From Desulfotalea psychrophila LSv54 (lineage in GTDB: Bacteria; Desulfobacterota; Desulfobulbia; Desulfobulbales; Desulfocapsaceae): DNA of 32,000 bases. The translations under genes and the position numbers were made by a program. Location of the stretch: NCBI RefSeq assembly GCF_000025945.1, contig NC_006138.1:1350001-1382000 (forward strand). Direction: 5' to 3'. Within the stretch, counting starts at the first letter, position 1. Every line of letters starts with the position of its first letter. Under the pieces are notes generated by a model. That model ran no database searches, had not been told where the DNA came from, and was given only the letters and a program-made list of their open reading frames with translations. Shown piece by piece: positions 9-16,799 of this stretch.

Positions 9-1148
9 TTGAGCTCACCGTCCATAATACATGGCAACACTCTCGATCAGGTTGCGGATAAGCTGGTAAAAAGGTTGGAGAGGCAGGTTGAGCTTGAAGG
101 TCTTAATCTTCAGCTGACGCCGTCCAGTTTTTCAGAACAGGGAAGTGGCAGGCAGCACGCTATTGTAGATAGTTTATACGAGGCCGTCTCCGTTGCCCTG
201 AGTGAGAGAGGCGCCTCCCCTTCACTGCATGAGATAGGGGATGAACCGATACGTCTGGTCGGCAGTTACTTAAAAACAGGCAGGTCGCTTGAGATTCATC
301 TGCGTCTGAGAAAGATGGGCAGGCTTGAGAGCAGTGATATAGCCGTTGCTGATTATACAACTTCCATGGCAGGAATTGATTCCCGGCTCTTGGCTAATTC
401 TCTTGATGTGGTTGCTCTGGAGTTAGTTAGGAAAATTGAAAGGACATATGTGGATATGGACGGGGCAAGGCTGATTGTTGAGCAGCCGTTACCGCTTGTT
501 CCCAGCGAGCCAACTCTGCAGTTTGGTTCTGCACTGAAGGCTGCCCTCGAGCGTGCTCTGCTTAGATCTGAAACCTTTGGCGGGGCCCATTTCGGCTCGA
601 CCAGGAATTGTATTAGACTGATCAGTAAATATAATGCGGGAGAGCCTGTGCAGATTGCCGTGACCCTCGAAGGAGAGCAGGAGCTGCCACTTGCCAGCGC
701 TGCCGCCACCCTTGCTCGCGCAGATATCCCGTCTCAATTTTTTGAAATGATTAAGGATCAGGGATCTCGGGTCTGCGTTGCCTATAGGGCAGGATCAAAA
801 AGGGCCGTCTCGTCTCAGTCTCCAACCGTTGAATTCCTTCTCAATCAGCTGGCCGCCTCACTGCACACGGTCAGTATAGAACCGGAAATTTGTGATTCGG
901 GTCAGCGGGGGATTCAGGTGAGCTCTTCACTGAACATAAAGAGGCGGAAGACTGAGGATGGCTATGTCATTTTGTTTGCCGATCTGAATCTTATCATCGA
1001 AAATAATGGTAAAAAAATAGGTACAGTACGTTCGAAGGGCCGTCAGTCAGCCGGGCAAATGGATGATGCTACCAGTCTCCTTCTGGAAAAGCTGTTCACC
1101 CCGGAGCTTGAGCAAAAGCTGGCCAAATATATACTTGGCATAAGGTAG
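9..1148 (+). CDS. hypothetical protein made of three FlgO/LpoB-like alpha/beta modules; possibly 5'-truncated by the window edge
   Basis: 379-codon ORF. The listed start is TTG and the frame stays open back to base 3, so the true start may lie upstream. Three ~110-aa segments repeat the pattern amphipathic helix ... xLxGxY-strand-strand (e.g. IRLVGSYLKTGRSLEIHLRLRK; IRLISKYNAGEPVQIAVTLEG). The fold-family call is pattern recognition, not a search. Confidence 0.55.
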   Translation: MSSPSIIHGNTLDQVADKLVKRLERQVELEGLNLQLTPSSFSEQGSGRQHAIVDSLYEAVSVALSERGASPSLHEIGDEPIRLVGSYLKTGRSLEIHLRLRKMGRLESSDIAVADYTTSMAGIDSRLLANSLDVVALELVRKIERTYVDMDGARLIVEQPLPLVPSEPTLQFGSALKAALERALLRSETFGGAHFGSTRNCIRLISKYNAGEPVQIAVTLEGEQELPLASAAATLARADIPSQFFEMIKDQGSRVCVAYRAGSKRAVSSQSPTVEFLLNQLAASLHTVSIEPEICDSGQRGIQVSSSLNIKRRKTEDGYVILFADLNLIIENNGKKIGTVRSKGRQSAGQMDDATSLLLEKLFTPELEQKLAKYILGIR

Positions 1149-1208
1149 GATTGAATGATGTACAGAGTGGTCAGGATGGTCTCGGGAATTATATCTACGG
1201 AGAGGGAT

Positions 1209-2669
1209 ATGGGTATTGTTGCAAATAGAGTTGTTCTTTTTGTCTTATTAAGCGTTGGCCTCTGTCTAAGCGGCTGTGTTACGGAGAAAGGCGGGTTCGG
1301 GCGGATCAATGATGGTCATCGTCCAGATACCTCCAGAGAGTCAGGCTTTTCCACCCTTTCTGAACTCACCGATATCTTTAGCCGTGATCTTGCCTCGCAG
1401 GTTCAGTCAAAAAAAATTTACCTTGATCGGGCAAAAATCAGAGATGTAAGTACAGGTGATGTTGCTAACTTCTCCTCCTATTTACAGAATGAACTTGAGG
1501 CGTCTTTGAGCAGAACATTTGACCTGCAGGTTGTCCCCGATGGAGCAGATTTGCTTCTTGGCGCAACTTTTCAGAGATACGGTGATCATATAAAAATATT
1601 TTTTAAATATCACTCCCCGGATTTTTCGGTGAATAAGAGTATTGATTATCATATTGAGCAATCAAGAATACCAAGGGATTCCCTGAAAGAGAATTTACAC
1701 TCAAAGGCAAAGCAGCTTGCGGCAAATATTATAGCTGACGATCTTGAGTATAAAATTTATGTAAAGCCCTTTGAATCATCAAGGTATGCATGTGTCTCTC
1801 CATTTTCCCGTATGTTTTCAACCTTGGTTAAAAGTCAAATAGTTCAGATTCACAGGCAGGTGGAAATCATTGATGATTGTCCTGTGAAGGGGAAATTATC
1901 ACACTTGAATAGTGCGGGCAAGAGGGGAAGAGGTGGTGCTGATGATCATTTTGCCGATGCCGATTCGGTGCTTGAGGGTGAATATGTTATCAATGGCGAT
2001 CAGGTTATGGTCACCCTTCTCCTTAAGAGTCTTGATGGGCATGTAATAAACAGTGCTCAGATTGATATTGCATCCTCTATCATCAAAATTCCGCTGGGTG
2101 ATCCGGCCTCGGAAAAACTGGCGGATCTTGCCGATCGCAAAAGTGAAAGGCAGGAGAGAACGGTTAAACGGGTGAAACTCTCCACGGGTAAGGGTGGGGA
2201 TTATCCTGTTTATTTTGAGGGTGAAAAAATTGTCTTCTATGGCCAGGTCAAGGAGCCACTCTTTCTCTATATATACGATATTACCAGCAGGGGTGATGTT
2301 GCCCTTCTCTATCCATATGGTTTCGGAATCGGGCAGAAAAAGGTGAATCCGGGTCGTTTAGTCTCCATCCCGGACGAGGAGGATGGGGTTGATCTCTATG
2401 TCGAGGCACCATTTGGCAAGGATGCTGTCAAGGTTTTCGCAAGTTCAATCGAACTGCCTCTGCCAACCCTCAGTGCTGCGGTGGAGTCGAAGAGTTATGC
2501 CCGGGGCGTACGGGCAATCGGTAAAAAGCGAAAAAGGGTTCAGGGAAGATTAGCGTCCAGGACAGAAATTAATCCCAGTGATCTGGTCGACTACTATCGG
2601 GGACTGGCCGAGCGGTTTGACATTAAAATTTATGAAGACAGCATTTTGCTGGAAACAAGATCAAGATAG
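1209..2669 (+). CDS. lipoprotein with two FlgO/LpoB-like modules and a C-terminal DUF4384-like domain
   Basis: Lies in ORF 1155-2669. The ATG at 1209 follows GGAGAGGG (1199-1206) and gives MGIVANRVVLFVLLSVGLCLSGC, a signal peptide plus lipobox. The C-terminal YPVYFEGEKIVFYGQVKEPLFLYIYDITSRGDVALLYPY...VSIPDEEDGVDLYVEAPFGKDAVKVFAS fits the DUF4384 pattern that usually accompanies bacterial caspase-domain genes. Confidence 0.7.
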   Translation: MGIVANRVVLFVLLSVGLCLSGCVTEKGGFGRINDGHRPDTSRESGFSTLSELTDIFSRDLASQVQSKKIYLDRAKIRDVSTGDVANFSSYLQNELEASLSRTFDLQVVPDGADLLLGATFQRYGDHIKIFFKYHSPDFSVNKSIDYHIEQSRIPRDSLKENLHSKAKQLAANIIADDLEYKIYVKPFESSRYACVSPFSRMFSTLVKSQIVQIHRQVEIIDDCPVKGKLSHLNSAGKRGRGGADDHFADADSVLEGEYVINGDQVMVTLLLKSLDGHVINSAQIDIASSIIKIPLGDPASEKLADLADRKSERQERTVKRVKLSTGKGGDYPVYFEGEKIVFYGQVKEPLFLYIYDITSRGDVALLYPYGFGIGQKKVNPGRLVSIPDEEDGVDLYVEAPFGKDAVKVFASSIELPLPTLSAAVESKSYARGVRAIGKKRKRVQGRLASRTEINPSDLVDYYRGLAERFDIKIYEDSILLETRSR

Positions 2670-3397: not shown

Positions 3398-4339
3398 GTG
3401 AGTGGAAATATGCTGAAGAGTCTCTGTCTCCTTGTGACAATATTTTTCTGTTCTGTCGCTCTACCTGGACTTGCCGCAGAGAGGGTGGCTCTGGTGATTG
3501 GTAATGGTGCCTATAAAGATGCACCGCTGACAAATCCCGTAAACGATGCAGATGATATGGTGGCCCTGTTAAAAGGTTTGGGCTTTAAGGTTATTAAGGT
3601 GATCAATGCCGATAAGCGGGAGATGCTTACGGCCCTGGGTAAATTTTCTCGGGAGTTGCCGTCATCGGAAATAGGCCTCTTTTATTTTGCCGGGCATGAC
3701 ATACAGATCAACACTCGCAACTATCTGCTGCCTGTCGTAACAACCCCTGTAAACGCGGTTCTTGCAGTGCAGGCCAGGGCTTTGCCCAGATGGATGCACC
3801 CAAGGCTACCATTATTGCCTATGCAACGGGTCCCGGTTCAGTGGCAGCAGACGGGGCCGGCAGAAACGGTCTCTTTACCAAGCATCTGCTCTCCGCCTTT
3901 AAGGCTCCCGGTCTTGATATCCAAAGGATCTTTAACAGGGCGGGGATGGGGGTAATGGAGGAAACTGCCGAGAGACAGATTCCTTCGACCTCCAATATCC
4001 CGATTCCGGATTACTCCCTGACAGCTCAGTCCCTCCCCCCCTGACTACCCTTGATCCTGAAGAGAAACTTTGGCTTGCCGTCAGAAAGCTTGGCGATCTT
4101 GCCGCCTTTGCAACTTATCTGGCCGAGTATCCCTCTGGCAGGTTTGTAAGGGTTGTGAAACTACAGATAAAATGCTCAAGAAGGAGGTTGTTGCCACAGG
4201 CGATTCCTTTGGCGGTGGTCATTGTTATGAGAGGCCTGTGCATGAAGTCTGTGTAGATGGTTTTTCCCTGGCAGAAAAATTTAATCGGTCGGTCTCTGCA
4301 GGTAAAAGATGTCAAATCTATTGCGCCACTGTTACTTAG
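3398..4339 (+). pseudogene. disrupted caspase-like (peptidase C14) gene with remnant of a C-terminal FGE/SUMF1-type domain
   Basis: Frame A (3398-) encodes a signal/TM segment plus the start of a caspase domain: RVALVIGNGAYKDAPLTNPVNDADDM...LFYFAGHDIQINTRNYLLP. The catalytic-Cys motif ACRNNP and the rest (MDAPKATIIAYATGPGSVAADGAGRNGLFTKHLL...) sit in frame B (open 3700-4044). About 40 aa normally found between these blocks are absent. After a C7 run (4035-4041) a third frame encodes EEKLWLAVRKLGDLAAFATYLAEYPSGRF. A fourth piece (frame of 4070-4339) has ERPVHEVCVDGF, which is typical of the start of an FGE-sulfatase domain, and then stops. Confidence 0.7.
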
Positions 4340-4486
4340 CCATAGGCTAAAGTTATTTTTTTTGCAAATAGCTGATCAATTTTTTTTGTTAAAGATTGTT
4401 TGTGAAATTGGTATTATAGGGATTTTGTTGATTGTTTTTTGTAAGAGATGTTTTTTTAAAAAAATTTATCCTTCGATAATTAAAAT

Positions 4487-5215
4487 ATGGAAAAGAAAGA
4501 TCAGGACATGATAGTTGGTGTTGCCAGGAAGCTGTATCACAATTATGTGGCTGGTAGCGCGTCTGAGGTTGGGATCAGCGTGGAAGATTTGATTCAAACA
4601 GGCATAATCGGTTATCTGGAAGCTAAGAGTCGGCTTGATAAAGAAAAAGGTGATGGCAAGGCATTTATTTTTATGCGGATGAAGGGCAACCAGCTGTCGT
4701 TGATACGCAGGCAGGCACTTGTTCGCATGCCCCAGAAAACATACGCAAAGGTAAAAGAACTGCTGGCAGTAAGAAAGCAGCTTGAGGCAAGCTGTGTGGA
4801 GGCAACGGATCAGTTACTTGCCGAGAGACTTGGCTGGACAGTAAAGGAAATACATCAACTACTGGCCTCCGTACCTCGGGTCTTTTCCTCCGATGATGTC
4901 ACCGACAATGAGGAGAGCAGTGATTTTTATGAGAGCCATTTTCTGCCGGGGCAAAACCCACAACCCCTCATTAGTGAAATGGAAAAAAAAGAAATTGCTG
5001 ATCTCATCCAAGGCTGTTTAGCGCGACTGGAGAATCCGCGGCAACGCTTGATTTTAGTGGCGAAATATTTTGAAGGCATAAACGTTAAAAAACTTGCAGA
5101 TCGATTTGGTTGCTCTAGGTACTTTGTTGAATCTGAGGAGCAAAAGGGTCTTGGCCAGATGCAGACCTGCCTTGAAAAAAGTGGCTGGCAATGGGACGGG
5201 GCAGAAATCGATTAG
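4487..5215 (+). CDS. sigma-70 family RNA polymerase sigma factor, FliA/sigma-28-like (regions 2, 3 and 4)
   Basis: 242 aa. Region 2-like: ISVEDLIQTGIIGYLEAKSRLDKEKGDGKAFIFMRMKGNQLSLIRR. Region 3-like: PQKTYAKVKELLAVRKQLE...ATDQLLAERLGWTVKEIHQLL. Region 4-like: LENPRQRLILVAKYFEGINVKKLADRFGCS. It is preceded by a very AT-rich 150-nt region (4340-4486). Confidence 0.75.
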   Translation: MEKKDQDMIVGVARKLYHNYVAGSASEVGISVEDLIQTGIIGYLEAKSRLDKEKGDGKAFIFMRMKGNQLSLIRRQALVRMPQKTYAKVKELLAVRKQLEASCVEATDQLLAERLGWTVKEIHQLLASVPRVFSSDDVTDNEESSDFYESHFLPGQNPQPLISEMEKKEIADLIQGCLARLENPRQRLILVAKYFEGINVKKLADRFGCSRYFVESEEQKGLGQMQTCLEKSGWQWDGAEID

Positions 5216-5234
5216 CTTTGTGAATGGAGGAGTT

Positions 5235-5801
5235 ATGGAAAAATTTCCCAAGATGGATTTGCGACAGGGAATGGAAATATGGAAGGAGCAGGCCCAGTCT
5301 CAGGCGGATGCAACTCATCTGTCAGAGGAGGAGTTGGCCCGGGCCGCAGTTCATGGAGGCTTGGCTGAGCTTGATGGATATCTCATTGAGCATTTGGCAT
5401 CCTGTCCTGTCTGTTTGGCAAAATGGGTTGCTGCCTGCAGAGATATCGATATGAGCAAAGATGAGTTTGCCTATGATACTGCAGACGACTGGTATAGTGG
5501 TGGCCTGCTTGAGGCTGCTGCCACGTCAGGGAGCAGATTACCTGCAGTGCTTCTCAGCAGGTGTGGTAATTTTAATCTACGGATTTTTCCGGATGAAAAG
5601 AGTACTGGGGCGATGGTGGCTCTTGAGACTCGTAACCCTTCAGCAACAGGACGCAGCGAGGGTAAAATGGTCACCGTTCAGGATGCTGAGGGTAAAATTA
5701 TTGTCGAAGGTAAAATTATTTCTGGCCGGTTTGCCCGAATGGTTGATAATCTCGATGGTTTTAATTTACAGGTCTGGTCATTAATGATCAAGCAGGGGTA
5801 A
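5235..5801 (+). CDS. putative anti-sigma factor (zinc-binding HxxxCxxC motif), no obvious TM segment
   Basis: The ATG at 5235 follows GGAGG (5226-5230) and lies 20 nt after the sigma gene stop. The motif is EHLASCPVCLAKW (H-x3-C-x2-C, ZAS-type). Its position immediately downstream of a sigma gene is typical of anti-sigma factors. The 5094-5234 part of the ORF overlaps the sigma gene. Confidence 0.55.
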   Translation: MEKFPKMDLRQGMEIWKEQAQSQADATHLSEEELARAAVHGGLAELDGYLIEHLASCPVCLAKWVAACRDIDMSKDEFAYDTADDWYSGGLLEAAATSGSRLPAVLLSRCGNFNLRIFPDEKSTGAMVALETRNPSATGRSEGKMVTVQDAEGKIIVEGKIISGRFARMVDNLDGFNLQVWSLMIKQG

Positions 5802-5805
5802 TGCA

Positions 5806-6663
5806 TTGGGAACGGTAAAAAAATGTACTCATTTGGAACCATCTTCTCTTCTTTTTCCCTTTGCAAGTGGTAATCTTGCAGAAATTGAGCTCTCCTTTTA
5901 TGTCAACTCCGGTAAGAGGGATGGACGTCCTATTACTACCTACCCGCTTGATAATGTTAGTCCGGATCTGGATCAGAGCGTCAGGTATGCCGCTGAAGTT
6001 GCCTATCGCCTTGCCCTTCAATCATCTAAGCTTGGGGAGATCTCTTATGCTGCCGGTTATAGGCTGAAAAACATGGAGGGAGAGACCTCGTTGACTGGGG
6101 AAAGCGCTGGTCTTGCCATGGCCTTGGCTCTTTATAGTGAGCTGACCTCTATACATCTGGGCAGGGTTGTTGCAACTGGAGCCTTAACAGGATTAGGAGA
6201 CGGTGGTACTGTCTCCTGGGTGGGTGAGGTGCCCGCAAAACTTCTTGGCGCTCTGGATGGTCTTGAGAGCGGTGATAGCATGTTCTACCCGCTTGCCAAC
6301 GTCTCCCAGGTTACCGATGTCCTTAAAAAAAAGTATGTGGAGAGAGGAATCAGATTAATTGCTGTTGGCAGTGTAGAGGAGGCTCTAAATTATTTTCCGA
6401 GTCTTTCTTGCCCGTCACAGGAGCTGGTGAAAAAGAGCAGGTGTGTTCCTGCCCTAGCTATTATTTTGCTGGTTGGGATGCTACTGGTGGGTGGCTATGT
6501 GTTGGGTGAGCATGATAACGACCTTGCTGAAGGGAATGTGATCATAGAGGAATCTTCTGTTGACAAGGTTAGGGGGAGGATAAAATCTTTTGAAGCTTAT
6601 AATGATCAGGGCGATAAACCTGCTCCGTCAGCGCAAAAAGATAATTCTTTCGGTTTTGAATAG
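5806..6663 (+). CDS. membrane-anchored Lon-type (S16) Ser-Lys protease domain protein without AAA+ module
   Basis: TTG start 5 nt after the anti-sigma stop; the next in-frame ATG is at codon 89. LTGESAGLAMALALYSELT...VATGALTG...GTVSWVGEVPAKLLGALDG aligns by eye to the E. coli Lon proteolytic domain (GPSAGIAM...[25 protein letters not shown]), with the catalytic Ser and Lys in place. A single TM follows (CVPALAIILLVGMLLVGGYVLG), then a ~50-aa acidic tail ending FGFE. Confidence 0.7.
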   Translation: MGTVKKCTHLEPSSLLFPFASGNLAEIELSFYVNSGKRDGRPITTYPLDNVSPDLDQSVRYAAEVAYRLALQSSKLGEISYAAGYRLKNMEGETSLTGESAGLAMALALYSELTSIHLGRVVATGALTGLGDGGTVSWVGEVPAKLLGALDGLESGDSMFYPLANVSQVTDVLKKKYVERGIRLIAVGSVEEALNYFPSLSCPSQELVKKSRCVPALAIILLVGMLLVGGYVLGEHDNDLAEGNVIIEESSVDKVRGRIKSFEAYNDQGDKPAPSAQKDNSFGFE

Positions 6664-6727: not shown

Positions 6728-7786
6728 TTATTCAAATGTCCCGGACATCTCCAGATCTCTTACCAACTCCCGGTCGAGGACGAACTGAACTTCTCGACTG
6801 GTGGCATCACCGGGGCGCACACCCTTGAGCATATCAATCTCTGCCTGGGTGTAGCGATATGGCACACCCTTCATTACGATCTCACCACCGTTTGCGCTGA
6901 TGTCGTTGAGCATCTTCATGATGTTGGCCTGCAGGACAAATGGATCGGTACCGCTGATATTTACCCGCCAGCTAACGTAGGATGCCTGAGGGTTATCGGG
7001 CACAATACGCTGACCATAGTTCTTGGCGTAATTAACGCCATTGGCCGTTTTGAGTACCTTGCCAAATACCTCGACGATGGCATATTCGGTTACACCATCA
7101 AGTTTAATGCTTAGATATTGCTCGTGTTGCTTGAAATTTCTGGCAAGGGCGCCGCCAGTTGCCGGGGCGGTATGAACCGCCGGTCTTACCACTCTCCTGT
7201 TTGATCTGTGACCATTCCAGGCGGTGAGTTTACGGCCAACCAGATCGCCAACCTCTTTTTCAACCTCGGCAATTGCGTCATCACAATCACGGCGGGTTAC
7301 CTTAAAGGTTTTTGACATGCCAACTCCAAGGTCATGGCCTGCAGAGTCATATCCCTCACCGTCAAGTCGGGCGGATGCCTTGCAATAGCCATCACTGGTT
7401 TTCCTTACCTTAACCTTCAGCCAACTGATATAGGCTGCATCTGTGGCGTATTTTCTACATACCTCAAGGCTGGCAAGGGCAGAGTCCTCATGGCTACGCT
7501 CCATGACCCGGTTATACTCACGTTCTGATGCATCACCTGCAAAGGGGTTTACAACTTCAAAGTTATGGCGTACCAGTTGGTTATTGATAAAACGCATCAT
7601 TCTGCGATAATGAAGTGTTGAACTGCCACCATCGTTTGCATCGTCACCTGCCTCAACATAGAAGGGCAGGACTACAATTCTGATTGGCTCGCTGTTGGCG
7701 CTGGCTACGGTAAAGGTCAACAGGGTTAACATTGTTGCTAACATGGCTGCCGCTACTGCTCTTACTGCTTTTTTTTTCGTTGTCAT
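6728..7786 (-). CDS. exported hypothetical protein (FlgO/LpoB/CsgG-N-like N-terminal module), C-terminus GTFE
   Basis: 352 aa. Signal peptide MTTKKKAVRAVAAAMLATMLTLLTFTVASA. IRIVVLPFYVE... is typical of periplasmic alpha/beta tether modules. RBS GGAGAG upstream (reverse complement of ctctcc at 7791-7796). Confidence 0.7.
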   Translation of the reverse strand: MTTKKKAVRAVAAAMLATMLTLLTFTVASANSEPIRIVVLPFYVEAGDDANDGGSSTLHYRRMMRFINNQLVRHNFEVVNPFAGDASEREYNRVMERSHEDSALASLEVCRKYATDAAYISWLKVKVRKTSDGYCKASARLDGEGYDSAGHDLGVGMSKTFKVTRRDCDDAIAEVEKEVGDLVGRKLTAWNGHRSNRRVVRPAVHTAPATGGALARNFKQHEQYLSIKLDGVTEYAIVEVFGKVLKTANGVNYAKNYGQRIVPDNPQASYVSWRVNISGTDPFVLQANIMKMLNDISANGGEIVMKGVPYRYTQAEIDMLKGVRPGDATSREVQFVLDRELVRDLEMSGTFE

Positions 7787-8044
7787 TATCTCTCCTGAAT
7801 AATTAAATGCCTTTTTTCCTTGAGTTGCAATCCTTATCCTCTGTTAATGTGGCTTGCCCGACCCTGTTCTCTCCAGTGTCCTTTAGCTCCGAATAATATA
7901 GACCTGTGCCCCTCTTTACAGGGATCTCCTAACCATTGCCAGAGAGCTCTTTACAGCTATAAGTGGGGTTCTGTTTAATATATCGTTCTTTCTATCAGGT
8001 CAAGTTTGTTTGTTAAATTATATAGTTCGAGCTATAATCTGCCT

Positions 8045-8173
8045 CTCCACGCTTAATCCACCCTGCCCTATCGAAGAAGAAGATATTTATGCAAAAAACA
8101 AATTCAGTTTTTTGCATAAAAAATGGACTATTGCCACCGCCTCCAGATCAGGGGCAAAGTGCCGGTGGCTTTT
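8045..8173 (+). ncRNA. candidate small RNA (promoter-like TTGTTA-17-TATAAT to GC hairpin + T4); speculative
   Basis: -35 TTGTTA (8010-8015), exactly 17 nt of spacer, -10 TATAAT (8033-8038). Internal 14-bp AT-rich hairpin at 8086-8120. GCCACCG (8133-8139) pairs with CGGTGGC (8163-8169) and is followed by TTTT (8170-8173). It lies in a 412-nt non-coding gap, antisense to the flanking genes. Confidence 0.2.
8086..8120. repeat. perfect 14-bp inverted repeat with 7-nt spacer
   Basis: TTTATGCAAAAAAC-AAATTCA-GTTTTTTGCATAAA, read directly from the sequence. Confidence 0.6.
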
Positions 8174-8198
8174 GGGGGAGCATGTCGCTGGCTAGTCT

Positions 8199-9449
8199 CT
8201 ACTCAAAACCACGATTAAAGGTGACCTGAAGGCTATCGTCTGTAACAGGGGTGAAGCTATAGTTATATATGCCCTCACTGTTCATTTCATTTGCCAGCCA
8301 TGAGATCAGCTCATCCATTTGCCATAGGCTCTTTTGTCTGAGGGAAAGGCTGTAGCAGACAGATGATCTTGAGCCTGTGGTGGATTGGTCGTAACGCCGC
8401 CTTATGTCGGTCAGTCCCGGCAATCCCTTCAGTACGGGATAGATCTTTTGCGCAAAATTGTCTCTGTAGTGATAAAAGCAGATCTGATATCCATCCCCTG
8501 TCTCAGAGCGAGAGGCTTGCTCAGCTCTCTCCCAGCCGGCAACAGTCTCCAGAGACACATATGCCTCGGTTTCTCTGCCGGGGACAAATATACCATTTTC
8601 CTTATACTTGGATGTTAGCCACACCTGATAAAGTCCACCATAAATCTGATGCGCCTTAATGTGGATACGGATATTGGCCTGTCTGGGATTATCTGTGACA
8701 GTTACCTCTCTATATCGTGCCAGGTAGTTTTTCAGTATCCCGAAAGAGTTTTTGAAATAGGGGCTATTGTCGGGGGAGTCCTGTTCTACATAGACAATAG
8801 TCTCATCGCTTTCCATATTGGCAAAAAGGCAACTGAGGTTTTTTGCGAGATAGGCAGCCAGCAGATCGCCCTGCCTTTTATTAAAGGGAAGGGGACGCAG
8901 ACCGAGGAGAAATTCATCCGCTGAGCTTTGCAGAAGAGCCCTCTGCTGTCCACGGCTTAGTCTGCCACGCCAGGAGAGACCAAAGCCTGTGACCCATGAT
9001 TTCGCCTTGATATCAAGGGCTCTGATATTTACCTTGAACACGCCATCGACAGAGGTTCTTGAGATATCAATACCCACATAATATTTTTCTCTCTGGCTTG
9101 CATTACACTCTACATCTTCAAGACTGGTGTGATGTTTGGGGGCTGCGGCAGATGGCCTCCAGACCAGGCCTATGCCCTGCTTTCTGAGCAGTCCATCTAT
9201 GATATCTTCACGTAGCTGGATGGTGAGGGCATCAATTTCTGTCTCTATATTATCCCGATCCATGGAGACGATTAAAAACGGTTCACCCTTAAATCTCGGG
9301 TTATCCCCCAGCTCATGAACGAGGTAGGGGATGGCTTGTTGGTCCAGCCACTCTTCAAGGGTGTGCTGTTGTGCCTGTATGCCACCTGTTCTGGCACAGC
9401 CGGAGAGGTAGATGCCGGCAAATAGAATAAACAGAAGGGTACGTTTCAT
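8199..9449 (-). CDS. lipoprotein with two FlgO/LpoB-like modules, C-terminus RGFE
   Basis: 416 aa. MKRTLLFILFAGIYLSGC is a signal peptide plus lipobox. Module signatures include EPFLIVSMDRDN...LTIQLREDIIDGLL and ANIRIHIKAHQIYGGLYQVWLTSKY. It lies 30 nt downstream of the SLT gene. Confidence 0.75.
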   Translation of the reverse strand: MKRTLLFILFAGIYLSGCARTGGIQAQQHTLEEWLDQQAIPYLVHELGDNPRFKGEPFLIVSMDRDNIETEIDALTIQLREDIIDGLLRKQGIGLVWRPSAAAPKHHTSLEDVECNASQREKYYVGIDISRTSVDGVFKVNIRALDIKAKSWVTGFGLSWRGRLSRGQQRALLQSSADEFLLGLRPLPFNKRQGDLLAAYLAKNLSCLFANMESDETIVYVEQDSPDNSPYFKNSFGILKNYLARYREVTVTDNPRQANIRIHIKAHQIYGGLYQVWLTSKYKENGIFVPGRETEAYVSLETVAGWERAEQASRSETGDGYQICFYHYRDNFAQKIYPVLKGLPGLTDIRRRYDQSTTGSRSSVCYSLSLRQKSLWQMDELISWLANEMNSEGIYNYSFTPVTDDSLQVTFNRGFE

Positions 9450-9479: not shown

Positions 9480-10349
9480 TCACATGAACTTCTTGTTAGG
9501 GTCTAGGTAATATCCAAGTTTTGCCATTTTTGCCAGACTGCTCTTCTTCTCCTCTTCTGTATTGAAGAGAAGAACCACAAAACTTTCACCTAACCTGTTT
9601 CTGAACCAGTCAAGCTGTACTTCCGGGGCGCGGGTGTAGAAGTAATCAATAAATTTTTCTGCAAGAAATGGATCATGAAAGAGAAGTACCGGGATTTTAT
9701 GTTTTGCGATGTACTTAGGTCTTCTTCTGGGCTTAGGTAGTCTCTTGCCTGCCTGGGCCACCATATACTGTTCGGAGATGATGCCTCTGCCCGATATATC
9801 CAGAACAGTTTTGAGATGATGGTAGATATAGCCGCTGTACCAGTTTGCTCCCTCCGGGATATTTCTGCTCTTTTGTTTAATACGACCGGGCCCGTAATTG
9901 TAGGCGGCCAGGGCCAGGTGAATATTCCCCCTGTACCGGTCCAGCATCATCCTTATATATCTTGCCCCGGCCATTATATTCCTGCATGGATCATAGAGCT
10001 GGGCAAGAGAGGTAAACCCCAGATCTTTAGCCGTTCCCGGCCAGTGAATCTGCATGATGCCGTAACAGGCGGCAGATGATTTGGCCCGTGGGTTGAAATC
10101 TGATTCGCCTTTGGCTATGGAGAGGAGGAGGGTGACAGGTATGTCGTATCGTTTGGCCGCCTTTTCAAAGCAGATCTGGTAGGGAAAGCTCTTGGCAGGC
10201 GACAGCTTAATCGCCCGTTTCTGGTAGTTTTGCCATGCGCAGTTATAGTCAAGTTTTTGGATCGTCTGTCTTGCCTTTCCTTCACCTTGAAAGAGGACCG
10301 TCCATACGAATATGGCAAAACAGATGGTAAAGATAAGTTTTATTTTCAT
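9480..10349 (-). CDS. lytic transglycosylase (SLT domain) with C-terminal SPOR-like domain
   Basis: Signal peptide MKIKLIFTICFAIFVWTVLFQG. SLT motifs: AKGESDFNPRAKSSAACYGIMQI (catalytic Glu-Ser) and LALAAYNYGPGRI. The C-terminal ~70 aa (IPVLLFHDPFLAEKFIDYF...FVVLLFNTEEEKKSSLAKMAKLGYY) have a beta-alpha-beta-beta-alpha-beta, SPOR-like pattern. Confidence 0.85.
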   Translation of the reverse strand: MKIKLIFTICFAIFVWTVLFQGEGKARQTIQKLDYNCAWQNYQKRAIKLSPAKSFPYQICFEKAAKRYDIPVTLLLSIAKGESDFNPRAKSSAACYGIMQIHWPGTAKDLGFTSLAQLYDPCRNIMAGARYIRMMLDRYRGNIHLALAAYNYGPGRIKQKSRNIPEGANWYSGYIYHHLKTVLDISGRGIISEQYMVAQAGKRLPKPRRRPKYIAKHKIPVLLFHDPFLAEKFIDYFYTRAPEVQLDWFRNRLGESFVVLLFNTEEEKKSSLAKMAKLGYYLDPNKKFM

Positions 10350-10362
10350 GGCGGCCTTGCCT

Positions 10363-11304
10363 CTACTCCAGGGTTATTTGGTTGTCAGCATGAATTGTTA
10401 TATCGCCACCCTTGCCTTTGCCCATCAGCTCCGTAAGCTGTCTGTGGATGCCAGGAGATAAATGTACTCCGTATGTAACAGCACCCTGCTTGAAGGCAGC
10501 TACGGAACGCCTGCCTGCGCGAATAACAGAGCCTGGGACAGTACTCTGATTTATTTCGTATATTTGTTGTGGTGGGGCCGAGGGAATAAAGCTGAGTTTT
10601 CCGCCCCTGCTCACCTGGAGCTTCCAGCTTTTTGTCTTGGCAAGCATAAAGAGCTCTACCTGTCCCCCCTGACCTACCATTTGCAGCAGGGTATTGTTTG
10701 AGGCGAAACCCAGGGTGAATCCCTTCTTTCTATCTGGTGCAGGCCTTGCCTCAGCGACTCTATGCTGCTTTTTAGCCTCTGCTATTTTTCCTTGAAGTAC
10801 CCGTAACTCTTTTTCTGTGAGCTGTTTTTTTATGAGGTATTGATTCTTGCCGGTCTCTGCTTTCCTCTGTAATTCGTTAAGGGCCCCTTGCTGAGTAAGA
10901 AAAGCCTCTGTCTGCAGCCTCTCCTCTGCCTGCATCCCAGCAAGATTGTCCTGCAGGATCTGCTCCCGTTCTTCCAGCTTTTCTATCTTGGCAGCCAGAG
11001 TTTCAAGCTCTTTAATGCCCCTCTGTAGTTTTTGTTTTTTTGTCTGGATCTCTGATTCAAAGAGAGCTGCCCGGCGAATGAGCTGAGCCAGCTGCTCTTT
11101 TAAGTCCTCAACCTCTTGCGGGCTCGTTTTCGTTTCTAATTCAGGGCGACTATTTTGGGGCTGAAGAGGTATTGCTTGAACCAGCGCGAAAATGACCATT
11201 AAACACATGCAGATAATGGCGAAAAAACGCATAACATCTGTTTGCAGGGTCTCTGTCTCATCACTTCCCTGATTATGGCGAAAGCGTGCGGTACCTGTCC
11301 TCAT
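10363..11304 (-). CDS. single-pass membrane protein: ExbD/TolR/MotB-type Asp-bearing TM + ~130-aa coiled coil + C-terminal globular domain
   Basis: 313 aa. The start overlaps the upstream stop (ATGA at 11301-11304). TLQTDVMRFFAIICMCLMVIFALV resembles E. coli ExbD TPFIDVMLVLLIIFMV and MotB YADFMTAMMAFFLV, with Asp23 at the cytoplasmic edge of the TM. Residues ~60-190 are heptad-rich in E/K/Q/L. Confidence 0.55.
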   Translation of the reverse strand: MRTGTARFRHNQGSDETETLQTDVMRFFAIICMCLMVIFALVQAIPLQPQNSRPELETKTSPQEVEDLKEQLAQLIRRAALFESEIQTKKQKLQRGIKELETLAAKIEKLEEREQILQDNLAGMQAEERLQTEAFLTQQGALNELQRKAETGKNQYLIKKQLTEKELRVLQGKIAEAKKQHRVAEARPAPDRKKGFTLGFASNNTLLQMVGQGGQVELFMLAKTKSWKLQVSRGGKLSFIPSAPPQQIYEINQSTVPGSVIRAGRRSVAAFKQGAVTYGVHLSPGIHRQLTELMGKGKGGDITIHADNQITLE

Positions 11305-11945
11305 GTTGTTCCCCGCTCATCTTTGAGAAGAGAGGCAATATTGTCAAGTTTTGCTATGATTTCCAGGTGTTCAGAGAGCTGTTGGCCAATTGCAAATTTA
11401 TAGAGTTTACTGCCCAGCATCCATGCCTTTATCATGCGCATCAGGTATCCACCGATGCCGCCAACAATTGTCGTTGACAGTGAGAGGAGGATGCCTCCAT
11501 CAATAAGTTCTTTAAGTATACTGAAGGCCCCTTTTTGGGCAGCGGTATCTGCATCCAGGCTGCCCAGCGAAACAAGAAGTGCGTTGCGCATGCCGATTGC
11601 AGTCCAGATGACACCGATGCCGAAGAAAAGGGTGATAAGGAGATCAATCTTTTCTTCAAGTGGATATATCTTTTCGGGGGATGTGGCTGTGCTATCAAGA
11701 GCCCTCTGCAGGCGAAAAAGATATAAGATGTAGAGGCAGGCTATCAGGGCAAAGGGGATAATCGAGAATCCTAAGTTGTCGTGGCACCAGTATAGAACGG
11801 GGATGAGGCTGAGGCTGTTTGTTGAGCTGATTGCCACTGTTCCCGATATGTTGAGAATATAGATAAGGGCTGCAACTGAAATTACGCCTAACATCATGCC
11901 GGCGAGATAGCTGCCGGCGTTTTGTTTCATTGTTTTGTTTTTCAT
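11301..11945 (-). CDS. MotA/TolQ/ExbB proton-channel family protein
   Basis: Lies in ORF 11301-11984. The ATG at 11945 avoids overlap with the upstream gene (stop at 11960). The start is uncertain; 11930 is also possible. Multi-TM. LFFGIGVIWTAIGMRNAL...LIDGGILLSLSTTIVGGIGGYLMRMI matches the conserved GTVxGM...GIxxALxTTxxGL core of the family. Confidence 0.65.
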   Translation of the reverse strand: MKNKTMKQNAGSYLAGMMLGVISVAALIYILNISGTVAISSTNSLSLIPVLYWCHDNLGFSIIPFALIACLYILYLFRLQRALDSTATSPEKIYPLEEKIDLLITLFFGIGVIWTAIGMRNALLVSLGSLDADTAAQKGAFSILKELIDGGILLSLSTTIVGGIGGYLMRMIKAWMLGSKLYKFAIGQQLSEHLEIIAKLDNIASLLKDERGTT

Positions 11946-11959
11946 AGCTCTAGCCCGTT

Positions 11960-12523
11960 TTATTCGGCCTGACACGCATCGCATGCGGCTTCCATGATGA
12001 GGTCAAGCTTGGTGAGGTCGTCGCTGGCCTTTGCATAGGTAACCTTGTCATTTGCTGCCCCGACCAGACCTCTTTCTTTGTCGGCAAGTTCTGCCTGCCA
12101 GTCACCTCGAAGGGACTTGAGATTTGAGCAGTAACTGCATGTCTGGTAGTCATCGGGCAGGGATATAAACCTGTGCGAGAAGTAGCGGGTGTAGTATTCT
12201 TTTGCCTGTATCTTGCTGATTATACCCTGGCTTTTTGCCCAGACGAGCAGCTTGCTGAACTTCTCTTTGTTTGCTTCTGTCGGATCTCCTTCGCTGATAT
12301 CCAGGAGGGTTTTGAAAATTGTCTCAAACTGATAGCTGCACTCCCGGTTTGCAAGTGTTTGCCGGGCCGTTGCAAAGGCAGGGTCCAGCAGGTAACCTGA
12401 GGGGAGCTGGCAAACTGGCTCTGGCACTGAATTCGTGTGAGTGGTGGATGCACATCCTGTGGTGATGGTGGCCATGGTTGCCGCTACTACAAAAACTTTT
12501 ATTCCGTTAATTATTTTTTTCAT
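11960..12523 (-). CDS. Cys-rich lipoprotein, unknown function, C-terminus CQAE
   Basis: 187 aa. MKKIINGIKVFVVAATMATITTGC is a signal peptide plus lipobox. The mature part has seven further Cys, including CSYC and CDAC pairs. Confidence 0.7.
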   Translation of the reverse strand: MKKIINGIKVFVVAATMATITTGCASTTHTNSVPEPVCQLPSGYLLDPAFATARQTLANRECSYQFETIFKTLLDISEGDPTEANKEKFSKLLVWAKSQGIISKIQAKEYYTRYFSHRFISLPDDYQTCSYCSNLKSLRGDWQAELADKERGLVGAANDKVTYAKASDDLTKLDLIMEAACDACQAE

Positions 12524-12556
12524 CTCTTTTTCTCCTATTCAATGATTTTGTCTTGT

Positions 12557-13345
12557 CTATTCCATTTCAAGAGGGCTTTGGAAACCACCCTGCTCACTGC
12601 TGCCAATAACGGGGAGTGAGCCTTCCTCCTCAATTTCACCAAAAACAACTGCCTTAACAGCGCTGACCGTGCTGAGCATTTCCGGGGTTAAGGTGCCATA
12701 CATCTGGCCAATGCGGTGCATGGTTTCCTGTTGGACGATTTCAGCTTCCATGATGTCAATCATATTGAGGACCGCCCCGCTATCAAGGTAGATTTCTGAG
12801 GCGAGTGAGGCGAGGTTGGTGTTGCCGCCGCGACTGATCATACTGTGATACTGAGCAAATCTGGTTGAGAGTGAATAGCGGCCCTTGTAAACCTTTGGCT
12901 TGGTAGTATTGCTGAGCAGGCGCTGAATACCGGCAGGTGTGGTCTTTTTGCCGATCTCTTTTCTCAGGTTTTTCTCAATCCCCTTATTTGTTGCAGAAAT
13001 GGACTGTTTGATCTCAGGAAGGTTCTCCTTCATGATAGAGAGCATCTCCATATAGCTGTCTCCCATCTGTTTTGATATTTCCAGACATCCGGGGTCACTT
13101 GAGCCTTCACAGCCGGTTTCCTGGTAGAGGCGTTGTTGCGTTTCGAGTTTGCCGATGGTGGCTTTAAGGCTGCTTTCCATGTTGCCGGCCACCTCGCCTG
13201 TATGGCTTAACTGTTCTGTTACATCTGTGGGGAAGAGGTTCAAAACAGGTTTTGAGTTTGCCGCCTGAGCATTCATGGCTGGAAGGGCAGCTCCGAAAAG
13301 AAAAATAAAGGCGGTGGCTGTAGCTATTTTTTTTCTGATTTTCAT
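12557..13345 (-). CDS. exported, predominantly helical hypothetical protein, C-terminus LEME
   Basis: Lies in ORF 12557-13384. The ATG at 13345 follows AAGGAG and gives MKIRKKIATATAFIFLFGAALPAMNAQA (signal peptide). I recognise no family. Confidence 0.7.
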   Translation of the reverse strand: MKIRKKIATATAFIFLFGAALPAMNAQAANSKPVLNLFPTDVTEQLSHTGEVAGNMESSLKATIGKLETQQRLYQETGCEGSSDPGCLEISKQMGDSYMEMLSIMKENLPEIKQSISATNKGIEKNLRKEIGKKTTPAGIQRLLSNTTKPKVYKGRYSLSTRFAQYHSMISRGGNTNLASLASEIYLDSGAVLNMIDIMEAEIVQQETMHRIGQMYGTLTPEMLSTVSAVKAVVFGEIEEEGSLPVIGSSEQGGFQSPLEME

Positions 13346-13370
13346 TTGTGGTCTCCTTTGAGAGGTCGGT

Positions 13371-13955
13371 TTATAGAGAGACACCTGTCTCTTTTATAAG
13401 TTCAATACTGTTAGCTTTTTCTGCTTCGCTGGAATAGTTGAAGTAAACCTGATATGTTCCAGGCCCTGTTTTTTCAGCAAGACATTCGATACCGCTATTT
13501 TTTGTTATGTATGCGGCAAATCTATCGGCCTTGTTCATCAGTGAGAATGGTTTCCAGAAAAAATGTTTTTCGCCTGCTACATCATCAACGATTATCACCT
13601 CATCTACCGGCATGGTGATTGGCGTAGCCAGGATGCTAAGGGCAGGCTCTGGCGTGATCAGTTCGGGCTCTGCCGTGATCAGTTCGGGCTCTGCCGTGAT
13701 CAGTTCGAACCTCTGGCGTGATCTGTTCGCGCCTGTCACTTTCAGCCTCTGGCCAGGCACAATCATCCCTATTCTGCTCAGCCAGGGGAGTGATGCCTGA
13801 TTCTCCTCCGCTAATAACATCAATCCCCTCCGGAGACGGCGCGCCTCTGCTATTTCCCTTCCCTTATTGATGATCAGCTCTGCAAGTTGGGGGTGGGATT
13901 GCCACAAAAGTAAACTGACAAATCCACCGACAATAAAACCGATTATAACTTTCAT
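13371..13955 (-). CDS. single-pass membrane protein with ELITxEP tandem repeats and C-terminal SPOR-like domain
   Basis: Lies in ORF 13371-13967. The ATG at 13955 follows GGAGA and gives MKVIIGFIVGGFVSLLLW (TM). The alternative start is 13967. The C-terminal FFWKPFSLMNKADRFAAYITKNSGIECLAEKTGPGTYQVYFNYSSEAEKANSIELIKETG fits the SPOR pattern. This is the first gene of the minus-strand block. Confidence 0.7.
   Translation of the reverse strand: MKVIIGFIVGGFVSLLLWQSHPQLAELIINKGREIAEARRLRRGLMLLAEENQASLPWLSRIGMIVPGQRLKVTGANRSRQRFELITAEPELITAEPELITPEPALSILATPITMPVDEVIIVDDVAGEKHFFWKPFSLMNKADRFAAYITKNSGIECLAEKTGPGTYQVYFNYSSEAEKANSIELIKETGVSL
13645..13707 (-). repeat. 3 x 21-bp in-frame tandem repeat inside the CDS
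   Basis: The plus-strand unit is GGCTCTG(G/C)CGTGATCAGTTCG at 13645-13665, 13666-13686 and 13687-13707. It encodes ELIT(A/P)EP three times. A degenerate fourth copy lies at 13709-13729. Confidence 0.9.
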
Positions 13956-14202
13956 ATATTTCTCCATAATTGTTTAGCATTATCAGCTTTCTCAAGAGAG
14001 GTATCGTTGATTATTTTCGTTTTTCAAAAAACAAAATATTTTTTGAGAAAAGGGGGCGCTCCACCCTCTGTCTCAGCGAGGTGCATGAGTTGTTTCTGTA
14101 TCGTGAAGCAGGGTGGAGGGGGGCCTTGGTATTATACCAATATAACTGTTAATTTGCTTGGATGAACGAAGGGGAGAGCGGCCTGCTCAGGCGGGGGCAA
14201 CG

Positions 14203-15062: not shown

Positions 15063-15083
15063 TTTCTGTGCTAGATGCAAGGC

Positions 15084-16799
15084 CTAGTTGCCGGCCATCA
15101 TGTCAGCAATATCACTCTCGGCGGTGCCGATGGGCTTGATGTTGAAGTTATCTACCAGCACCTTGAGTACCGCTGGCGAAATAAAGGCGGGCAGGCTCGG
15201 TCCGAGACGGATACCCTTAACTCCCAAATGCAGGAGGGCCAGGAGTACTGCCACCGCCTTCTGCTCGTACCAGCCGATATCAAAGGAGATGGGGAGCTCG
15301 TTGATATCTTCGAGCTGGAACACTTCCTTAAGTTTGAGGGCGATAACTGCCAGGGAGTAGGAGTCATTGCATTGACCGGCATCGAGTACCCGCGGGATGC
15401 CGCCGATATCACCGAGGTTCAGCTTGTTGTAGCGATACTTTGCGCAACCGGCGGTGAGAATGACCGTGTCCTTAGGAAGTTTCTCAGCAACTTCGGTGAA
15501 GTAGCCGCGTCCCTTTTGGCGGCCATCACAGCCTGCCATGACCACAAATCTTTTGATAGCCCCGGATTTTACCGCTTCAACCACCTTGTCGGCCAGGGCT
15601 ATTACCTGATTATGGGCAAAGCCGCCAACGATGGTGCCTGTTTCAATTTCCTCAGGTGCACTGCAGCCCTTGGCCTGTTTGATAATGGCGGAAAAATCCT
15701 TTGCCTTGCCCATTACCCTGTCGGCAATATGAGATACTCCCGGATAACCGGCCATACCGGTGGTGTAGATGCGGTTTTTGTAAGAGTTGCTCTCCCTGAT
15801 GGGTACGATACAGTTGGTGGTCATTAGGATCGGGCCGTTGAAGCTCTCGAAATCCTTATTTTGATGCCACCATGAGCTACCATAGTTGCCCTTAAGGTTT
15901 TCGTATTTCTTGAATGTGGGATAGTAATGGGCGGGAAGCATCTCGCCATGGGTGTAAACATCAATCCCCGTTCCCTGGGTCTGGATCATTAACTCCTCGA
16001 GATCTTTAAGATCATGTCCACTGATCAGAATGGCTGCCTTGTCACTGCCCCCGATGTTTACCTCGCTTATCTCAGGATGACCATAGCTCGTGGTATTGGC
16101 TGTATCCAGTGCTGCCATGGTGGTGACAGCGCATTCGCCGGCCCTGAGGACAAGGCTTACCATTTCATCAACGGAATGATCTTCCGTGGTGGAGGCCATG
16201 CCTTCAATGACAAAGTCATAGATCTCTTCTTTTTCCACCCCGAGCACGGCCGCATGCTCGGCATAGGCACCAATACCCTTTAGGCCAAGAATAAGCAGTT
16301 CGCGTAGAGATCTGACATCTTCGTTTTCTGTGGCCAGCACTCCGACGGTCTTGGCCTTCTCTTGAAACATGGCAGGATCGCTGGCAAACCATAGGGCAGA
16401 ACCGTCCAGCTGGTCTGATGCTAATGCCTTGTCGTCGGAGCCGAGGAAGTTCATAAGTGTCTTCCAGATAGAGGCCTGCTCGCTAGCAGAGCCAAGACCA
16501 TCTAACTCTGTTTTTAGACCCTGCTTAATGGCCTGGGAGCGCTTGATCCATCCCTCCAGGCTGGCGTTGTCAAAGTTGGCATTGGTGATGGTGGTAAAAA
16601 GCCCCTGAGAGATGAATAATCCGACGCTTTTATCAACCTTTACACCTGCATTTTTGAGGCCCTTTGCCAAGACGGCAATACCCTTGAGATCGTAGATGAG
16701 CAGATCCTGAAGGTTGGCCGTTGTCTCTTGTTTTCCACAAACACCCTTGACTGTGCATCCTGTACCTTTAGCGGTTTCTTGACATTGAAAACAGAACAT
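15084..16799 (-). CDS. hcp: hybrid cluster protein (hydroxylamine/NO reductase), copy 1
   Basis: 571 aa. The N-terminal [23 protein letters not shown] has the Cys-x2-Cys-x8-Cys-x5-Cys cluster motif. Conserved blocks are [41 protein letters not shown] and WYEQKAV. Confidence 0.95.

Follow-up and report, generated by a model that had tools for sequence, protein, structure and literature searches.

A conserved trio of a FliA-like sigma factor, an anti-sigma candidate and a membrane-anchored Lon-type protease as a putative envelope-to-gene signaling module in Desulfobacterota

The 32,000-nucleotide (nt) stretch of the Desulfotalea psychrophila LSv54 genome analyzed here (contig NC_006138.1, positions 1,350,001 to 1,382,000; hereinafter the window, in the numbering of which all positions are given) contains three consecutive genes on the plus strand that encode a sigma factor, a soluble protein of 188 amino acids (aa) that is a candidate anti-sigma factor, and a 285-aa membrane-anchored protease of the Lon type (Table 1). 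The three open reading frames (ORFs) are separated by 19 and 4 nt, in agreement with the tight packing noted in an earlier reading of the bare sequence (hereinafter the original prediction), and the genes located 3' of the trio are convergent. We are highly confident in the identities of the three components and in the functional linkage among them, and the trio most likely represents an undescribed switch that relays the state of the envelope to gene expression.

The product of the first gene matches the Pfam models Sigma70_r2 (29.5 bits, cut-off 24) and Sigma70_r4 (24.8 bits, cut-off 24.1), whereas the match to Sigma70_r3 (20.7 bits) falls under the cut-off of that model (25.3), so that the original assignment of regions 2-4 holds in full for regions 2 and 4 and as a subthreshold match for region 3. 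In NCBIfam, the protein belongs to the sigma-70 superfamily (TIGR02937, 74.9 bits against a cut-off of 42.9), with FliA/WhiG as the closest sub-family (TIGR02479, 66.1 bits, far under the cut-off of 189.6), and its closest relatives among the solved structures in the Protein Data Bank (PDB) are FliA proteins (E 4e-10). The predicted sigma-28-like character is thus retained with one refinement: because the FliA/WhiG score is far under the family cut-off, the protein is, judging by these profiles, a group-3, FliA-like sigma factor and not a bona fide FliA.

The 188-aa protein contains the sequence EHLASCPVC and has no transmembrane (TM) segment (the maximum Kyte-Doolittle (KD) mean over 19 residues is 1.32), both as originally described. 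Its homologs (n=23) are all 183-198 aa long, and all of them keep the H-x3-C-x2-C motif; the residues invariant in this set are W16, H28, H53, L54, C57, C60, W64, A94-A95-A96, S108, C110, G111, D150, G159, A167 and W181. The ligand spacing H-x24-H-x3-C-x2-C is that of H6/H31/C35/C38 in ChrR, and an hhalign comparison with the ChrR sequence (verified against 2Q1Z) weakly places H28/H53/C57/C60 on these four residues (E 4e-4, probability 34%). The protein itself matches nothing in Pfam, NCBIfam, PADLOC or PDB sequences, and no zf-HC2 or other anti-sigma Pfam model is matched by any of the 23 family members at E<=10. Since no zf-HC2 model recognizes the family, its ZAS identity is based on the motif and the weak ChrR profile alignment; accordingly, of the original ZAS assignment, the motif, the spacing and the alignment stand, whereas the profile does not, and the protein is best described as ZAS-like, formal membership in the family being unproven.

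The structural model of this protein (overall pLDDT 74.9) consists of an N-terminal helical domain (aa 9-74, with helices at 9-25, 31-38, 42-45, 48-56 and 58-74, pLDDT 60-87), a disordered linker (75-91, pLDDT <50) and a confidently modeled C-terminal beta-sandwich (104-185), with a short helix that carries LEAAAT located between the linker and the sandwich. A Foldseek search with this model retrieved generic beta-sandwiches only and no anti-sigma structure. The invariant alanines at the end of the linker make the LEAAA motif a candidate cleavage site and, potentially, a latent C-degron.

For the 285-aa protein, a Pfam search detects Lon_C (PF05362) with 24.9 bits, above the gathering score of 21.1, over the C-terminal half of the profile only (positions 102-200), and just 12 of its 55 relatives individually reach E<0.001 with this model. 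The originally proposed Lon-type Ser-Lys dyad is recovered: Ser100 and Lys145 align with S679 and K722 of Escherichia coli Lon, and S100, G102, A123-T124-G125 and K145 are invariant in the 55-sequence alignment, as is the dyad in 46 more distant family members. Since more than 100 diverged sequences all keep the dyad and the ATG motif, conservation argues for retention of protease catalysis. The AlphaFold model built on the 55 relatives has pLDDT >90 across most of residues 10-200, and its best Foldseek match is E. coli Lon (1rr9, E 6e-10, ~195 aligned columns, TM-score 0.77 normalised to the target), so that the fold comprises a complete Lon proteolytic domain.

The fold begins at residue 14, there is no AAA Pfam match in the protease, and every member of the family begins with the protease domain. 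The sequence KKSR before and EHDND after the predicted TM helix indicate an N-in/C-out orientation, which places the protease domain in the cytoplasm and the disordered 51-residue tail in the periplasm; Pfam, hydropathy and flanking charges thus agree with the originally proposed architecture of a cytoplasmic head, one TM, a periplasmic tail and no ATPase module. An exhaustive HMMER search yielded 214 protease clusters at 50% identity (E<=1e-3); a word-indexed search with the protease alone returned only the query and, with the profile, 8 family members. Of 150 family representatives, 127 have a single TM, located around residue 200-240.

Related loci were retrieved with the protease profile (L001-L014), with one protease homolog (L015-16) and with the anti-sigma candidate (L017-22). 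The genes for the sigma factor, the anti-sigma candidate and the Lon-like protease are found in the same order and on the same strand in L001-L011, L015-L021 and L013 (in the last of these with a more diverged sigma factor), the anti-sigma candidate gene being directly 3' of the sigma factor gene in every trio locus. This order is kept wherever the contig allows, which amounts to ~15 independent loci in Desulfobacterota, as expected of a trio that is syntenic elsewhere; the three genes are never apart in these loci and abut or overlap each other, the stop codon of one gene often overlapping the start codon of the next, and protein identity across the loci is 25-46%. The named sources are metagenome-assembled genomes (MAGs), all labelled as Desulfobacterota lineages (Desulfobacterales, Desulfuromonadales, Desulfobulbus, Syntrophobacterales) or as the broader 'Deltaproteobacteria' or 'Proteobacteria'. 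The Actinomycetota locus L014 was rejected as a family member and represents a PDZ-Lon (YlbL-like) outgroup.

Two types of variation in the anti-sigma candidate were observed among these loci. In L011, a Desulfobulbus MAG contig, the sigma factor and the anti-sigma candidate form a single 453-aa ORF (312-1673, plus strand), which is either a natural fusion or the result of a lost stop codon. The distant anti-sigma-like proteins of L012 (2-388) and L013 (9367-9909) lack HxxxCxxC, but both the Ala-rich linker (KAAADAA) and the beta domain persist in them, and the partner protease in both cases contains a fused periplasmic DUF4384; the persistence of the linker and the beta domain is what one would predict for a protease-recognition module made up of the two.

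Whereas the protease head is constant across the family, the end of the tail varies and can be GF[DE], a fused DUF4384, PD40 or others. The periplasmic part is either a low-complexity linker of 45-110 residues or such a linker followed by a domain of ~120 aa without assignment. The GF[ED] end is present in 86 of the 150 family representatives, with the consensus [DNG]-[KR]-G-F-[DE]-COOH. Nearly all members of the close-relative alignment end with GF[DE] and none of the 55 contains DUF4384, whereas among the long members without the motif 28 of 46 carry a C-terminal DUF4384 and three others PD40 repeats. A separate gene for a DUF4384 lipoprotein is located directly 5' of the sigma factor gene in L002, L005, L006, L008 and L009, and 6 loci of the GF[DE] type have a DUF4384 gene next to the trio; in the window, the ortholog of the gene found directly 5' in those five loci is located slightly further 5' (Table 1). 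This either/or distribution of the GF[DE] tail and the fused DUF4384 suggests that the tail communicates with a DUF4384 partner.

The original prediction further described the FGFE ending as island-wide. This is the case in the window, where two neighboring envelope proteins of no known family have similar C-termini (NRGFE and GTFE; Table 1), but not in the related loci, where among 780 ORFs the GF[ED] end occurs on Lon-like proteins only. The bodies of these two window proteins are related neither to one another nor to the protease, and hhalign aligns only the last 9 residues of the protein encoded at 8199-9449 with the protease family. We also considered homology of the ~120-aa periplasmic domain of the long family members to window proteins and rejected it, there being none beyond these last 9 residues. 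Neither the single protease nor the closest pair gave a match when genomes and metagenomes were scanned, and hence no close ortholog of the window locus was obtained.

Directly 5' of the sigma factor gene, the sequence TTGAAA-N12-CTTCGATAA occurs in a fixed register in 9 of 10 loci. A position weight matrix (PWM) trained on the 9 non-window sites only gives two hits of at least 17.5 in the window, one 5' of the sigma factor gene and one 5' of the operon that starts at 13967, so that the shared promoter motif anticipated in the original prediction exists; block shuffling gives an expectation of 0.05 hits >=17.5 per window, and two such hits were obtained in 0 of 300 block-shuffles. A third, weak site precedes the gene at 6728-7786. 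The same matrix picks up held-out sites in front of the sigma factor genes of the window, L011, L015 and L017-19; in other loci, it also identifies sites 5' of divergent lipoprotein-led operons (L001, L002, L008, L009, L010 and the held-out L015), of the genes for DUF4384 in L002, L008 and L009, and of a caspase-PEGA-FGE gene in L017-19. This pattern defines a putative autoregulated regulon of envelope genes, the motif of which the sigma factor is predicted to read. The sigma-28 promoter is TAAA-N15-GCCGATAA, with CGATAA as the core of the -10 element; this core is common to the two promoters, whereas the -35 element and the spacing differ.

The -10 element of the sigma factor promoter in the window ends just 8 nt 5' of ATG 4487, which implies either a leaderless mRNA or initiation of translation further along, at the second ATG (4508, M8), the latter being a possible alternative start. 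A hairpin with a T-run separates the sigma factor operon from the upstream caspase remnant. The putative target operon encodes six envelope proteins, of which only the SLT lytic transglycosylase (9480-10349) belongs to a known family. An hhalign comparison of the window operon proteins with the conserved operon families c3-c11 detected no homology beyond signal peptides, and for this reason the idea that all loci encode the same envelope machine was dropped.

Table 1. Coordinates of the trio, its domains, motifs and promoters, and of associated features in the window
Feature	Positions	Strand	Remarks
Sigma factor gene, group-3 FliA-like sigma-70 family	4487..5215	+	242 aa; Pfam, NCBIfam, PDB, orthologs in all trio loci
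Soluble anti-sigma candidate gene	5235..5801	+	188 aa; ATG after Shine-Dalgarno GGAGGAG
AAA-less single-pass membrane Lon-type (S16) protease gene	5806..6663	+	285 aa; TTG start
Putative zinc ligands of the anti-sigma candidate	H28 5316-5318, H53 5391-5393, C57 5403-5405, C60 5412-5414	+	23/23 homologs
Ala-rich motif G90-L-L-E-A94-A95-A96-T97	5502..5525	+	end of disordered linker; A94-A96 invariant
Cytoplasmic Lon proteolytic domain, aa 14-200	5845..6405	+	Ser100 6103-6105, Lys145 6238-6240
TM helix, aa 216-234	6451..6507	+	KD 2.47; flanks KKSR before, EHDND after
Disordered periplasmic tail, 51 aa	6508..6660	+	ends G-F-E-COOH (6652-6660); protein ends FGFE
Bipartite sigma-28-like trio promoter	4451..4480	+	-10 CTTCGATAA at 4471-4479; -35 T/A-rich; PWM 17.7
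Second sigma-type promoter copy (TTTTGAAAAACGAAAATAATCAACGATACC)	14000..14029	-	32 nt 5' of operon starting 13967; PWM 18.5
Weak third promoter-like site, 5' of 6728-7786	8067..8096	-	PWM 14.1; CTTCGATAG at 8068-8076
Putative target operon, six envelope proteins	9480..13967	-	SLT lytic transglycosylase, multi-TM, TM coiled-coil, lipoprotein
DUF4384 lipoprotein, candidate periplasmic partner of GF[DE] tail	1155..2669	+	slightly further 5' of sigma factor gene than elsewhere
Secreted 352-aa protein without known family	6728..7786	-	ends ...SGTFE; probable regulon member
416-aa lipoprotein without known family	8199..9449	-	ends ...NRGFE, same C-terminal motif as protease
Terminator-like hairpin and T-run (TTAGCCATAGGCTAA + AGTTATTTTT)	4336..4360, hairpin 4336-4350	+	5' of AT-rich leader

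The closest precedent with experimental evidence for the logic suggested by this gene set is the type III CRISPR-associated CalpL/CalpT/CalpS system, in which the Lon domain of CalpL cuts the anti-sigma factor CalpT inside an unstructured LAAA sequence, and the cut exposes an LAA C-degron such that degradation of CalpT frees the sigma factor CalpS (bioRxiv 10.1101/2024.05.08.593097). As in that system, the three genes analyzed here encode an ATPase-less Lon-type protease with a sensor, a soluble two-part anti-sigma candidate and a sigma factor, and the layout of the anti-sigma candidate is CalpT-like, with a predicted sigma-binding head, an Ala-rich disordered linker (LEAAA as against LAAA) and a second domain. 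The sensors differ: that of CalpL is a cytoplasmic, cA4-binding SAVED domain, whereas here it is a TM helix with a periplasmic tail (GF[DE]-COOH or DUF4384). No Pfam match to SAVED or CARF and no PADLOC match was obtained, and the neighbors that were scanned or had precomputed matches are envelope genes without CRISPR context. Furthermore, CalpS is ECF-like (extracytoplasmic function), whereas the sigma factor here is a group-3, FliA-like one and the anti-sigma candidate combines a ZAS-like domain with a beta-sandwich. To our knowledge, CalpL is the only ATPase-less Lon cutting an anti-sigma factor that has been studied experimentally.

We propose that the trio is an autoregulated module in which a receptor-protease frees the sigma factor by cleaving the anti-sigma factor, a scheme that we consider moderately probable. 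Under this scheme, the 188-aa protein would use the zinc-binding (ZAS-like) helical domain at its N-terminus to keep the FliA-like sigma factor inactive, and the third protein would be the receptor-protease, with a cytoplasmic Ser-Lys Lon head, one inner-membrane helix and a flexible periplasmic tail bearing a GF[D/E]-COOH docking motif. A change in the periplasm would be transmitted to the cytoplasmic heads, most likely when the tail docks onto a DUF4384-type lipoprotein or onto the assembled envelope complex, which would cluster the heads; activation by clustering is speculative and is proposed because Lon and CalpL domains need to oligomerise. The Lon heads would then cut the anti-sigma factor at LEAAA in the disordered linker, and the N-terminal fragment, now ending with ...AA, which could serve as a ClpXP-type C-degron, would be degraded. 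The freed sigma factor would transcribe from the TTGAAA-N12-CTTCGATAA promoters its own operon, with amplification of the response, and the neighboring envelope operons.

Several considerations weigh against this scheme. Binding of the sigma factor, the cut in the anti-sigma factor and its site, the degron step, and the nature of the signal and its sensing by the tail are all parts that we infer, and an isolated Lon domain, lacking an unfoldase, may work inefficiently, needing an exposed site and probably oligomerisation. With respect to the anti-sigma candidate, the low-scoring ChrR alignment and the lack of zf-HC2 recognition are joined by the failure to find a solved relative by sequence or fold (best Foldseek E 0.012). 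Given the resemblance of the promoter to the sigma-28 type, a housekeeping FliA could read it, and the -35 element of the window's own sigma factor promoter is poor. SLT is the sole detectable homology shared between the envelope operon of the window and the operons adjacent to the trio elsewhere. Finally, in a profile comparison of the protease with solved structures, the closest relatives are the proteolytic domains of LonB and LonA, and CalpL was not detected by sequence; the protease being closer to LonA/LonB than to CalpL, the CalpL parallel is an analogy rather than homology, and Lon was probably recruited here independently.

Redox sensing is well established for ZAS proteins such as RsrA, and one alternative is that the ZAS-like anti-sigma factor itself senses thiol oxidation or zinc loss, as RsrA and ChrR do, whereas the membrane Lon-like protein is a co-transcribed effector, possibly a protease for the quality control or processing of envelope proteins of the regulon or a device that resets the response by degrading the sigma factor. 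The invariance of all four zinc-ligand positions fits this view, as do the frequent presence of regulon members in sigma factor operons and the occurrence of the protease tail motif on two neighboring envelope proteins, given which the protease might be a part of that machine rather than of the switch. We nevertheless judge it unlikely: the active site of the protease is cytoplasmic whereas the envelope proteins are periplasmic, HxxxCxxC is lost in L012 and L013 whereas the protease persists there together with the Ala-rich linker and the beta domain, a purely redox model provides no role for the invariant AAA in the disordered linker or for the conserved beta domain, and the three genes stay together in ~15 loci. 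Alternatively, the Lon-like protein could be a non-catalytic membrane tether for the anti-sigma factor or for its complex with the sigma factor, with the signal altering binding (partner switching). The conserved beta domain could dock to such a tether and the protease has no unfoldase, but the Ser-Lys dyad and the ATG motif would hardly be expected to be invariant across the diverged family in that case, and the probability of this explanation is, in our opinion, low.

We assign a similarly small chance to the trio being a conflict or defense system akin to CalpL/T/S, in which phage attack or damage would cause sigma-driven arrest or death through secreted caspase-like proteases. Peptidase_C14 genes are indeed repeatedly found beside the trio (window 3398-4044, L007, L009, L015, L017-19), the sigma-type promoter in L017-19 is aimed at the caspase-PEGA-FGE gene, and the tripartite logic resembles that of the Calp and Craspase systems; however, PADLOC has no match for the trio or its neighbors apart from a marginal MzaA match of the sigma factor, the neighbors in the window and the loci that were scanned or had precomputed Pfam hits include neither cas nor cyclase genes, the conserved neighbors look structural and envelope-related (SLT, MotA/ExbB-like, OmpA, lipoproteins), and the caspase gene of the window is frameshifted. 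Adjacency by chance of three genes with unrelated functions is a negligible prospect, effectively refuted by the synteny: order and strand are unchanged, stop and start codons overlap and the promoter is shared at ~15 independent loci, the proteins of which are 25-46% identical.

Regulated proteolysis of anti-sigma factors is the main bacterial route for information from the envelope to RNA polymerase, and in the known routes a membrane-spanning anti-sigma factor is cut successively by site-1 and site-2 proteases. The proposed receptor-protease module shares with the RseA/DegS/RseP/ClpXP pathway of sigma-E (and the RsiW and RsiV routes) the conversion of an envelope signal into anti-sigma proteolysis and probably the last step, ClpXP degradation of a fragment ending with ...AA. 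A periplasmic C-terminal peptide is central in both cases, the YxF tails of outer-membrane proteins (OMPs) that activate DegS on the one hand and a motif on the protease itself on the other hand. The difference is that here the anti-sigma factor is soluble, whereas a single protein spans the membrane and bears the cytoplasmic protease; Pfam scans found no genes for a PDZ-S1 protease or a site-2 protease (S2P) metalloprotease in the trio operon. The originally proposed contrast with DegS/RseP therefore holds, the anti-sigma factor not being membrane-anchored and S2P being absent, but the arrangement is less unprecedented than implied because the CalpL/CalpT/CalpS precedent had been overlooked.

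SpoIIGA of Bacillus, which acts with SpoIIR and pro-sigma-E, is likewise a membrane receptor-protease with a cytoplasmic catalytic domain that mediates sigma factor activation by a signal across the membrane; it is an aspartic protease that trims the pro-sequence of the sigma factor, and no anti-sigma factor is involved. The FliA/FlgM system is similar in its sigma-28-like factor and promoter (-10 CGATAA) and in the soluble anti-sigma factor, the removal of which may report the state of an envelope structure, and the neighbors here include SLT, MotA/ExbB-like, OmpA/MotB-like and FlgO-like genes. However, the anti-sigma candidate bears no relation to FlgM, its predicted fate is cleavage rather than export, and no flagellar structural genes were recognized among the neighboring genes scanned. 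From the ZAS proteins ChrR, RsrA and RslA, with which it shares the ChrR ligand spacing and the location of the gene directly 3' of that of its sigma factor, the 188-aa protein differs in its group-3 rather than ECF partner, in the lack of a zf-HC2 match and in the beta-sandwich that takes the place of the ChrR cupin. The protease resembles LonA, LonB and LonC in the proteolytic fold, the Ser-Lys dyad and the ATG motif, and LonB is also membrane-anchored; in LonB, however, the TM helices are inserted in the AAA+ domain, whereas here there is no AAA+ domain and the protease is N-terminal and followed by the TM.

Thus, the freeing of a sigma factor by a Lon-type protease is already known from CalpL, whereas a membrane-spanning, periplasm-sensing version, the combination of a ZAS-like anti-sigma factor with a FliA-like sigma factor, the GF[DE]/DUF4384 sensor ends and the promoter have not been described, and literature searches, within the library available, returned no description of a transmembrane Lon and anti-sigma module under this or related terms. 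If the proposed scheme is correct, a single protein spans the membrane and cuts a soluble anti-sigma factor directly with an ATPase-less Lon domain, and the family of 214 clusters suggests that Lon logic was recruited independently for envelope signaling, with interchangeable ends (GF[DE], DUF4384, PD40). The module offers a predicted cut site, catalytic residues and a defined promoter, and its small putative regulon consists of wholly uncharacterized envelope proteins of sulfate- and metal-reducing bacteria. It also points to a gap in family libraries, given that Pfam Lon_C catches few members of the protease family and that no Pfam or NCBIfam model matches the anti-sigma candidate.

A tentative extension, which we regard as conceivable with the balance of probability against it, is that GF[D/E]-COOH is a new periplasmic docking motif that plugs envelope proteins and the protease tail into a DUF4384-type lipoprotein hub, the occupancy of which would cluster or release the Lon heads, so that the module would act as an assembly checkpoint for an undescribed envelope machine of Desulfobacterota. 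Were this the case, a one-protein, ATP-independent transmembrane receptor-protease would play the role that FlgM export has for flagella.

Some additional features of the window and of the related loci were noted. The gene that opens the putative target operon (13371-13967, minus strand) contains an in-frame 21-nt tandem repeat in four copies (13645-13729, 90% identity), which encode ELITAEP. The intergenic region 7787-8198 is unusually long (412 nt) and contains a 14-bp hairpin (8086-8120, minus strand) that is located 3' of the 8199-9449 gene and overlaps the -35 element of the weak promoter-like site; an Rfam scan of the whole window detected no RNA family. The secreted caspase-like Peptidase_C14 gene upstream of the trio (3398-4044, plus strand) is broken across two reading frames, with 3398-3955 corresponding to profile positions 2-101 and 3790-4044 to positions 159-225, and is either a pseudogene or affected by a sequencing error; Pfam and tblastn gave no support to 4070-4339 as an FGE-sulfatase remnant of a caspase fusion. 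In L018 and L019 (900-6200), what looks like a mobile or defense-type insertion lies between caspase-FGE genes beside the trio, with genes for an RVT_1 reverse transcriptase, an HRDC protein, an AAA_14/DUF4143 ATPase and a Y1 transposase. The region 3' of the trio in L017 (12200-17663) encodes DUF1425, LpoB, DUF6844 and CsgG-family proteins, which suggests a curli-like or CsgG-type outer-membrane channel. Further downstream in the window, two divergently transcribed paralogs of ~570 aa each (15084-16799, minus strand, and 17148-18857, plus strand) resemble hybrid-cluster proteins (Hcp), as judged by reading the sequences alone, and a 250-aa ORF (15075-15827) on the strand opposite to the first of them is probably spurious.

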